Virus record (IMG/VR): IMGVR_UViG_646311924_000016
Source: a virus
Lineage: Duplodnaviria > Heunggongvirae > Uroviricota > Caudoviricetes
Direction: 5' to 3' (one strand)
DNA length: 45,166 nucleotides
Notes under the pieces: generated by a model
What the model saw: the letters and a program-made list of their open reading frames with translations, nothing else
What the model was told of the DNA's origin: nothing
Databases searched by the model: none
Shown here: positions 32,071 to 32,867 of the stretch, in pieces
How positions within the stretch are numbered: the first letter of the stretch is position 1
Layout: every line of letters begins with the position of its first letter
Made by a program: the position numbers and the translations under genes

Positions 32071-32436
32071 TCACAGGCCAGTGATTCCGTCGGCCCTGAG
32101 CGTGCCATCAGGAAGCTCAGGCAACGTCGGATCAGGCATACCACTCGCCGCTTCACTCGCTGACTTCTGGCGATGGCATTCAGTACAGAGGGTCCAGAGG
32201 TTCGTCTCCTCATTACCACCACCGAACTGAAGTGCAATGCGGTGATCGAGTTCACTGTCACAGAGGTCAACCACGCGTCTACAGAGACAACAGTGTCCGG
32301 CATCCCTCCGCCAGATACGACGTTTGAGGGAAACCCGGGCACTGCCACTGACACGACGCTGTTCACCCTTCAGAATATTCACCCGCCGGGTGTTCAGAGT
32401 TTTGATTCTGCCCGGTAACGTACGAAGCACAGCCAT
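32071..32436 (-). CDS. HNH endonuclease (packaging-associated)
   Basis: 121 aa with 'C..C...D.ELDHRIALQFGGGNEETNLWTLCTECHRQK' HNH/zinc motif; directly upstream of the cos-like region and terminase genes. Confidence 0.8.
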   Translation of the reverse strand: MAVLRTLPGRIKTLNTRRVNILKGEQRRVSGSARVSLKRRIWRRDAGHCCLCRRVVDLCDSELDHRIALQFGGGNEETNLWTLCTECHRQKSASEAASGMPDPTLPELPDGTLRADGITGL

Positions 32437-32477
32437 GAAAAATCCTCGCCATATAGCTTGTCACCAGAGGAAAGAAA

Positions 32478-32705
32478 ATGTCATCGAAAAACCGGCCCCG
32501 CAGAACAACAACCCGCAACATCCGATTTCCAAACCAGATGATTGAACAAATTAACATCGCTCTTGACCAGAAAGGTTCAGAAAATTTTTCTGCGTGGGTC
32601 ATTGAATCTTGCCGCCGGGAGCTGGCAGCAGACATAAAATATGCCCGTCAGTTGACTATAAAAAAGAATGATACACAGTATGCTCTGCGATGGCTGTTCA
32701 TATAA
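32478..32705 (+). CDS. Ribbon-helix-helix (CopG/Arc-like) DNA-binding protein, antisense to the late operon
   Basis: 75 aa; ATG at 32478 with GAGGAAAG RBS; 'RNIRFPNQMIEQINIALDQKGSENFSAWVIESCRREL' fits a beta-strand plus two helices RHH pattern; own downstream terminator. Confidence 0.55.
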   Translation: MSSKNRPRRTTTRNIRFPNQMIEQINIALDQKGSENFSAWVIESCRRELAADIKYARQLTIKKNDTQYALRWLFI

Positions 32706-32837
32706 CTATTTCTTTATATTGCTGAATTTATAAAAAATCACAGACATTAGCTGTATTAATTCCGAATTGAAATAATCAGCCATATAGAATAAAAATAAAG
32801 CATAACAATAATAATCTTCTACCCAATCAGTACATTA

Positions 32838-32867
32838 CTGCTGTGACTCCAACACGGCAGTTTTTTT
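32838..32867 (+). terminator. Rho-independent terminator downstream of the RHH gene
   Basis: Stem ctgctgtg / cacggcag (one G-U pair), loop actccaa, followed by T7 (32861-32867). Confidence 0.55.

Follow-up and report, generated by a model that had tools for sequence, protein, structure and literature searches.

A YlcI/YnfO-family gene antisense to the late genes of an Escherichia coli prophage, and its probable relation to Arc-like ribbon-helix-helix proteins

In phage P22, the ribbon-helix-helix (RHH) protein Arc, encoded in immI, faces the operator-covered promoter Pant. RHH antitoxins (KacA, MazE7, the HicB-like C-terminal domain) follow a plan of an N-terminal DNA-binding domain and a variable tail. 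The lambda morons bor and lom are independent AT-rich units with their own terminators, located between Rz and cos, opposite to or within the late operon. Closest of all to the gene described here are ylcI and ynfO of the Escherichia coli K-12 prophages DLP12 and Qin and a 64-aa homologue in lambda, and the literature on ylcI, ynfO, DUF3950 and DUF1398 yielded gene lists and mapping artefacts only, with no functional study found. Here we analyze the YlcI/YnfO gene of an E. coli prophage contained in a 45,166-nucleotide viral record (IMGVR_UViG_646311924_000016; “the window” below). The gene is a 75-codon ATG open reading frame (ORF) at 32478–32705 on the plus strand. With a probability of about 0.55, we propose that it encodes an Arc-like DNA-binding protein from an autonomous moron-like unit, probably a repressor, which has been orphaned in this prophage.

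Compared with YlcI, YnfO and the lambda homologue, the window protein belongs to the same Pfam, NCBIfam and PHROG families, and the first 50 residues are ∼85–90% identical. However, the tail is unrelated. Upstream lies an HNH gene instead of the cos region, and downstream a terminator instead of ybcW/ybcV or ydfO. Like Arc, the protein is small, has the predicted order strand-helix-turn-helix and carries an N-[IL]-R-[FW]-P motif at the strand/helix junction; family members match Arc-like repressor PHROGs, and copies in phage satellites also face a promoter covered by palindromic operators. Unlike Arc, it has a longer C-terminal extension and gave no significant direct sequence or profile match. 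A P22 immI-type module was not found either: no ant or mnt gene adjoins the ORF, and no palindromic operator was found in the window. The antitoxin plan of domain and tail is shared, but the similarity is limited to the DNA-binding domain, and the gene has no adjacent toxin and no match to toxin-antitoxin (TA) or PADLOC models. The unit resembles the bor and lom morons in the features given above, whereas its product is a cytoplasmic putative DNA-binding protein and not an envelope or virulence factor.

Three modest points give the locus its interest. The DUF3950 protein of lambda, the K-12 cryptic prophages and Shiga toxin (Stx) phages is most likely an Arc-like RHH DNA-binding protein. From lambdoid phages to phage satellites, its gene keeps an antisense place within long unidirectional operons. 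In the satellites, the YlcI-like gene is one half of a divergent switch, which leads to the repressor hypothesis and is the lead most worth following.

Family membership and the conserved core

The window protein matched Pfam DUF3950 (PF13132) with an E-value of 3e-17 and 62.6 bits (cutoff 25), the NCBIfam model NF041551 “YlcI/YnfO family” with 39.2 bits (cutoff 30), and PHROG 949 (phrog_949, unknown function) with an E-value of 2e-32. It is 100% identical to RefSeq WP_000095736.1, a “YlcI/YnfO family protein” in E. coli O111, and the 801-bp region around the gene was found at 100% identity in many Shiga toxin-producing E. coli O111 genomes. Sequence resembling this 801-bp query is present in 4332 of 5426 complete E. 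coli genomes (∼80%), with as many as 14 places in one genome. The window gene is an ordinary, previously annotated member of a very common family, and for these reasons finding it is not news. The initial annotation had staked its proposal on conservation in related prophages. The identical protein is encoded by the Stx phages BP-4795 (ORF52), 2851 and YYZ-2008, where the antisense position is kept.

Scanned exhaustively with HMMER, 1.8 billion representatives yielded just 102 clusters at 50% identity, which marks the family as narrow. Judged by source names and locus titles, its members come from Enterobacterales and one Pasteurella satellite; a further profile-based homologue search listed close relatives again and nothing beyond. 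Matches outside Enterobacterales are mostly lambda control-DNA contamination. On contigs of 3.5 kb or ∼48.5 kb (L013–L042, L050, L051), the lambda ylcI was found in dozens of assemblies whose taxa are unrelated (Streptomyces, Cohnella, Pedobacter, Flavobacterium and metagenome-assembled genomes), and the same contamination inflates the ENA protein matches with error-ridden variants.

Residues I15, R16, F17, P18, I25, F37, S38, W40, V41 and C45 are invariant in 41 of 41 family sequences. The window protein shows this IRFP...NFSAWV...C signature, the 55–80 aa size and the variable tail.

A 90-aa ORF overlaps the YlcI gene on the opposite strand. Its third codon positions coincide with those of the plus frame, so codon-position counts cannot tell the two apart. 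No frame except the plus frame was open throughout the 13 distinct lambdoid-type homologues. Stops interrupt the antisense frame in six of the 13 (E. albertii, Escherichia sp. and four Tatumella species), and a true gene on the opposite strand was rejected on this ground. Over codons 13–48 of the 13 sequences, the ratio of nonsynonymous to synonymous polymorphism (pN/pS) of the plus frame was 0.32. It follows that the plus-strand gene is real and that purifying selection acts on it, and together with the matches to the three family models these results mean that the ORF is more than a chance reading frame.

In the DNA alignment with lambda, Qin and DLP12, the homologous block extends from the ATG to near codon 50, and the sequences upstream and downstream of this block are unrelated to those phages. 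The proteins show the same pattern, with residues 1–50 near-invariant and tails completely different among family members. The conserved unit is therefore a 50-codon core, shuffled between contexts. In the window this core, a putative RHH DNA-binding domain, is encoded at 32478–32627 (+), and the hypervariable C-terminal tail (residues 51–75) at 32628–32705 (+).

The core very probably adopts an Arc-like RHH fold. In 21 of the 41 family members, a match was found to the HicB-like antitoxin phrog_497 at profile positions 99–143 (best E-value 2e-5), and phrog_497 is the most frequent profile neighbour of the family. The members from Moellerella and Morganella (P0278 and P0271) match the Arc-like repressor phrogs 228, 582 and 6506 over residues 7–58, with E-values from 1.3e-4 to 3e-2. 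These profile matches suggest a transitive link between the YlcI family and RHH families across the whole domain, weak but recurrent. AlphaFold2 (AF2) gave a mean predicted local distance difference test score (pLDDT) of 75 with a 30-sequence alignment, and of 69 with a 41-sequence alignment including relatives of 33–44% identity. The single-chain model has an extended N-terminus, a helix at 19–32, a one-residue turn at G33 and a helix from residue 34, which is the RHH order of elements; for an obligate dimer, the strand would not be expected from one chain alone. The core layout would be a basic N-terminal arm, a predicted beta-strand T12–F17 with the invariant IRFP, helix A (19–32), G33 and helix B, which carries the invariant NFSAWV..C. 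AF2 extends helix B into the tail 51–75, with a pLDDT of 57–64 over the last blocks. In predicted structure, the best neighbours are the RHH antitoxins KacA and MazE7.

Direct comparisons with RHH proteins gave weak or negative results. The window protein gave no match at E-values up to 10 to the RHH families in Pfam and NCBIfam or to RHH chains in the PDB, and a 16-member profile gave no RHH match in Pfam, NCBIfam or the PDB up to E = 10. Its own best RHH-type match was phrog_497, with an E-value of 0.044. When compared with verified Arc by hhalign, strand and helix A fell in the expected register (N-I-R-F-P on N-L-R-W-P) with a probability of 3%. Foldseek against the PDB returned nothing significant, just TCP-domain matches at E > 1. 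The TCP-domain matches were dropped as support for an RHH fold, since the TCP paper does not call that domain RHH. The RHH label of the initial annotation thus finds no direct Pfam, NCBIfam or PDB match, and what sustains it are the family members that match HicB-like and Arc-like PHROGs. The RHH assignment, which is absent from the databases searched, is a reasonable one.

Transcription unit and lambdoid context

The YlcI gene and the HNH endonuclease gene of the HK97-type packaging module (32071–32436, −) are divergent, with start codons 41 bp apart. A Shine-Dalgarno (SD) sequence, GAGG, was read from the sequence at 32467–32470 (+), 7 nt before the ATG. The 75-aa coding sequence (32478–32705, +) is followed by an AT-rich non-coding spacer (32706–32836), at the position where relatives have a DUF1398 gene, and then by an intrinsic terminator at 32837–32868 (+). 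The terminator consists of a GC-rich hairpin with a 9-bp stem (32837–32861) and T7. Its folding energy is −17 kcal/mol (z = −4.6 compared with shuffles), and the minus strand has no T-run there. The GC content is ∼26–31% in the spacer, 46% in the YlcI core and 52–62% in the HNH gene. All flanking genes are on the minus strand. The unit thus has some of the marks of a moron, namely its own terminator and an orientation and composition unlike those of the surrounding operon. The observations of the initial annotation are confirmed by these results: a 75-aa plus-strand gene between the HNH and lysis genes, opposite to its surroundings, with its own ribosome-binding site (RBS) and terminator, in a span (32436–32867) whose limits, the HNH start codon and the terminator, enclose the unit correctly. 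Its interpretation is supported in part.

The same annotation placed the promoter inside the HNH gene. A candidate sigma70-like promoter, CTGACA-17-CAGAAT, does lie within the HNH coding region at 32348–32376 (+) and matches at 9/12 positions. It is the sole sigma70-like match given upstream of the gene and is a candidate only. Matches upstream were not above those in shuffled sequence (3 found, 2.2 expected), and the promoter stays hypothetical. Another promoter-like match, TTGAAA-18-AAAAAT at 32767–32796 (+), is located in the spacer ∼40 nt before the terminator; because the DNA is AT-rich, it is probably a chance match. No inverted repeats were found at 32280–32480, upstream of the gene, and no convincing operators or repeats around the gene and its putative cos region. 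An Rfam scan of 31500–34200, spacer included, gave no match.

In K-12, ylcI and ynfO are antisense to the late genes at the position of the window gene. They directly adjoin the small-terminase genes nohD and nohA, respectively, across the cos region, and ylcI lies 388 bp from nohD. Lambda carries an intact, unannotated homologue of 64 aa, 110–305 nt from the right end and antisense to late transcription. It corresponds to positions 200–394 of L004, the reverse complement of the right end, a record without any annotation. A genome-wide CRISPRi screen of lambda does not include this gene in its lambdap-numbered list; the “orf-64” of that screen was considered and rejected, as it is a different ORF between Q and S. 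Antisense placement beside packaging genes is common to DLP12, Qin, lambda, E. albertii, BP-4795 and the window. The window gene also has the typical location, antisense, with the lysis/moron region on one side and the packaging genes on the other, an empirical feature outside the family model. The arrangement HNH-YlcI-terminator is retained in the inducible Stx phages BP-4795, 2851 and YYZ-2008. Antisense placement has been described as typical of accessory loci (PMC7067206).

What follows the gene differs among relatives. In Qin and E. albertii, the DUF1398 gene ydfO lies 40–57 nt downstream of ynfO on the same strand, and ynfO-ydfO is listed as an operon in K-12 (PMC12218254). In lambda and DLP12, the DUF1398 gene is further downstream, behind the opposite-strand ybcW, and in K-12 ybcW-ylcI has been listed among convergent excludons, present in at least 50% of RNA-seq samples (PMC12288877). 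DUF1398, ybcW and bor are all absent from the window. The K-12 homologues are transcribed in uninduced cells, but their upstream DNA differs from that of the window gene. The SD of the window gene is better than that of the lambda copy. In the representative library, one sequence (P0200) has a YlcI-like N-terminal domain fused in frame to the DNA-binding N-terminus of the small terminase TerS (Terminase_2).

Satellite relatives and competing functions

YlcI-like relatives with 33–44% identity and the same invariant residues are present in phage-inducible chromosomal islands that form capsids (cf-PICIs) and P4-like satellites of Klebsiella, Xenorhabdus, Pantoea, Gilliamella and Pasteurella (Pmp7). 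The gene order is int, alpA, (antA), YlcI-like (opposite strand), a 62-aa gene, small ORFs and primase, with capsid genes in the cf-PICIs. The cf-PICI copy adjoins replication genes and is kilobases away from HNH/TerS. As in the window, a family member stands as a single antisense gene with its own terminator in a unidirectional array. Unlike in the window, it is paired divergently with a small gene of a “repressor” family near alpA and primase, and in the protein an insertion lengthens the inter-helix loop by 4 residues and the beta-strand differs at positions 12 and 14.

The YlcI-like gene and the 62-aa gene, which belongs to phrog_1743 “transcriptional repressor”, diverge across 178 bp. In the Klebsiella element (L060), this region has a leftward promoter, TTGACG-17-TATAGT, with a 10/12 sigma70 match, overlapped by a perfect 12-bp palindrome (GTGTACCCCCAC / GTGGGGGTACAC). 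A third copy of the palindrome is located immediately 5′ of the YlcI-like ATG. Other satellite lineages have different, equally iterated motifs in the divergent region, and such repeats were not found upstream of the window gene or the lambda copy. The arrangement suggests that the palindromes are putative operators. An architecture of repressor and operators supports a repressor role for the family.

Some further features of these elements were recorded. The switch region of L060 (6823–6990) and its equivalents in L049, L052, L055, L057 and L063 carry a strong leftward promoter, over which lie lineage-specific palindromic or iterated motifs of 12–14 bp. In the leader of the leftward operon, a conserved hairpin shows compensatory changes and precedes an invariant TCTRACCA motif. 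No Rfam family matched this hairpin, and the known int-alpA RNA motif (RF02996) is located elsewhere in the elements. Long antisense ORFs over the homologue in Xenorhabdus, Klebsiella and Pasteurella were rejected as over-extensions of the 62-aa gene. These include L063 4435–5109 (−) (Pmp7, 224 aa, “transcriptional repressor”), L058 6634–7608 (−) (324 aa) and L055 5535–6719 (−) (a 394-aa open frame). Just the C-terminal ∼45–70 residues match a family (phrog_1743), and the antisense extension is broken in sister elements with an identical YlcI-like protein.

We propose that core residues 1–50 of the small basic 75-aa window protein form an Arc-like RHH dimer, which would bind DNA via a two-stranded beta-ribbon with T12, N14 and R16 as predicted base-contacting residues. 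The gene would form a self-contained, moron-like unit with its own RBS and terminator, directed against the Q-dependent late operon. It lies between lysis and packaging genes, a location that lambdoid phages use for accessory genes expressed in the lysogen. The protein may then be made from the prophage and not during late lytic transcription, and we consider its expression in the lysogen rather likely. It may act as a transcriptional repressor, as the satellite homologue is placed to repress a divergent operator-covered promoter; DNA binding with repressor activity is likewise somewhat favoured. Because the cis operators and the usual DUF1398 partner are both missing here, the window protein is an orphan, and the gene is probably an orphan regulator in a decaying prophage. 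Given this decay, the function of this particular copy is not guaranteed. To our knowledge, cf-PICI and P4-like satellites are presently thought to be controlled solely through AlpA. It is a long shot that YlcI-like proteins are Arc-type master repressors of these Gram-negative satellites, with the lambdoid copies, those of the window and of lambda included, as trans-acting homologues by which the phage interferes with satellite derepression, or which the satellite senses.

An antitoxin-like role is unlikely. The RHH domain would autoregulate and the variable tail would bind or control the DUF1398 product (YdfO, YbcV, lambda p78), so that the window copy would be a partnerless remnant. RHH antitoxins are built in this way, with a conserved RHH N-terminus and a variable tail, and the best neighbours by structure and by profile (KacA, MazE7, HicB-like) are antitoxins. 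The genes ynfO and ydfO form a close pair, and natural YnfO-YdfO fusion proteins exist (P0167). However, DUF1398 is no known toxin, YdfO overexpression was protective according to a report cited in PMC4077768, and neither YnfO/YlcI-type proteins nor DUF1398 matched PADLOC or TA-family models. The intervening ybcW of lambda and DLP12, the lack of any DUF1398 in the satellites and the window, and the confinement of the HicB-like match to the DNA-binding part also argue against it. In the window, spacer and terminator follow the gene, and no adjacent co-transcribed toxin gene was found; the view of the initial annotation that no partner toxin is visible still stands. The proximity to packaging genes raises another explanation, which we regard as quite improbable. 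Every lambdoid example abuts the packaging module, at 110–305 nt (lambda right cos), 388 bp (nohD) or 41 bp (HNH), and P0200 joins the domain to TerS. A protein bound near cos or the packaging gene start could shield the prophage cos, block HNH/terminase read-through or assist terminase. This does not fit the cf-PICI copy beside replication genes, and no repeated motif was found near the putative cos region of the window or upstream of the gene. As for the fusion, P0200 stands as one cluster alone and may be an annotation or assembly artefact.

The gene could also act through its RNA, with convergent transcription hindering leaky late-strand transcription and the peptide being incidental. The antisense location within a long operon is the one feature common to phage and satellite copies, the K-12 ybcW-ylcI pair is called a convergent excludon, and antisense RNAs within late genes can be functional, as for STnc6030 (PMC7067206). 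But the protein is under purifying selection, its invariant residues are kept at 33–45% identity across genera, and the window unit has a good RBS. The terminator, moreover, limits the transcript to ∼400–500 nt, which covers only the HNH start on the late strand. We consider an RNA-level role very unlikely. A functionless passenger, intact but idle and carried by mosaic recombination in a decaying prophage, seems improbable to the same degree as a packaging factor. In its favour, the host prophage is defective and no promoter was found for the gene. The ATG and codon 50 are the exact borders of the homology block, so its original flanks, upstream and downstream, have been exchanged for other DNA. 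Against it, the same HNH-YlcI-terminator layout persists in inducible Stx phages, the SD is better than in lambda and comes with a strong dedicated terminator, and the family is intact across Enterobacterales. An orphaned Arc-like DNA-binding protein stays our preferred explanation.

Host prophage and neighbouring genes

The host E. coli prophage is defective and decaying. Its portal gene is split into two ORFs (24925–27347; “frameshifted” in RefSeq). The tape-measure gene (16866–21936) is interrupted by an IS91-family transposase ORF at 18647–19879 (+) with Y2_Tnp and Zn_Tnp_IS91 domains. IS1203 (∼38361–39574) separates the late region from a Qin-like immunity region (YdaT, Cro, DicA-like, dicB, ydfD).

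On the packaging side of the YlcI unit, the minus strand encodes TerL (29560–31221) and TerS (31218–31781). On the other side, also on the minus strand, are a 74-aa ORF (33074–33298) that overlaps the Rz stop codon, Rz with embedded Rz1 (33295–33813) and lysozyme (34087–34620), with YdfR/DUF1327 and holin as further neighbours. The 74-aa ORF matches positions 100–172 alone of the 291-position profile phrog_2571, so it seems to be a piece of some longer protein. Beyond the tail-fibre genes, the prophage carries type III effector cargo: an IpaB/EvcA-family protein, NleG and an OspG/NleH-like kinase (2158–2748, 2932–3579 and 6042–6962).
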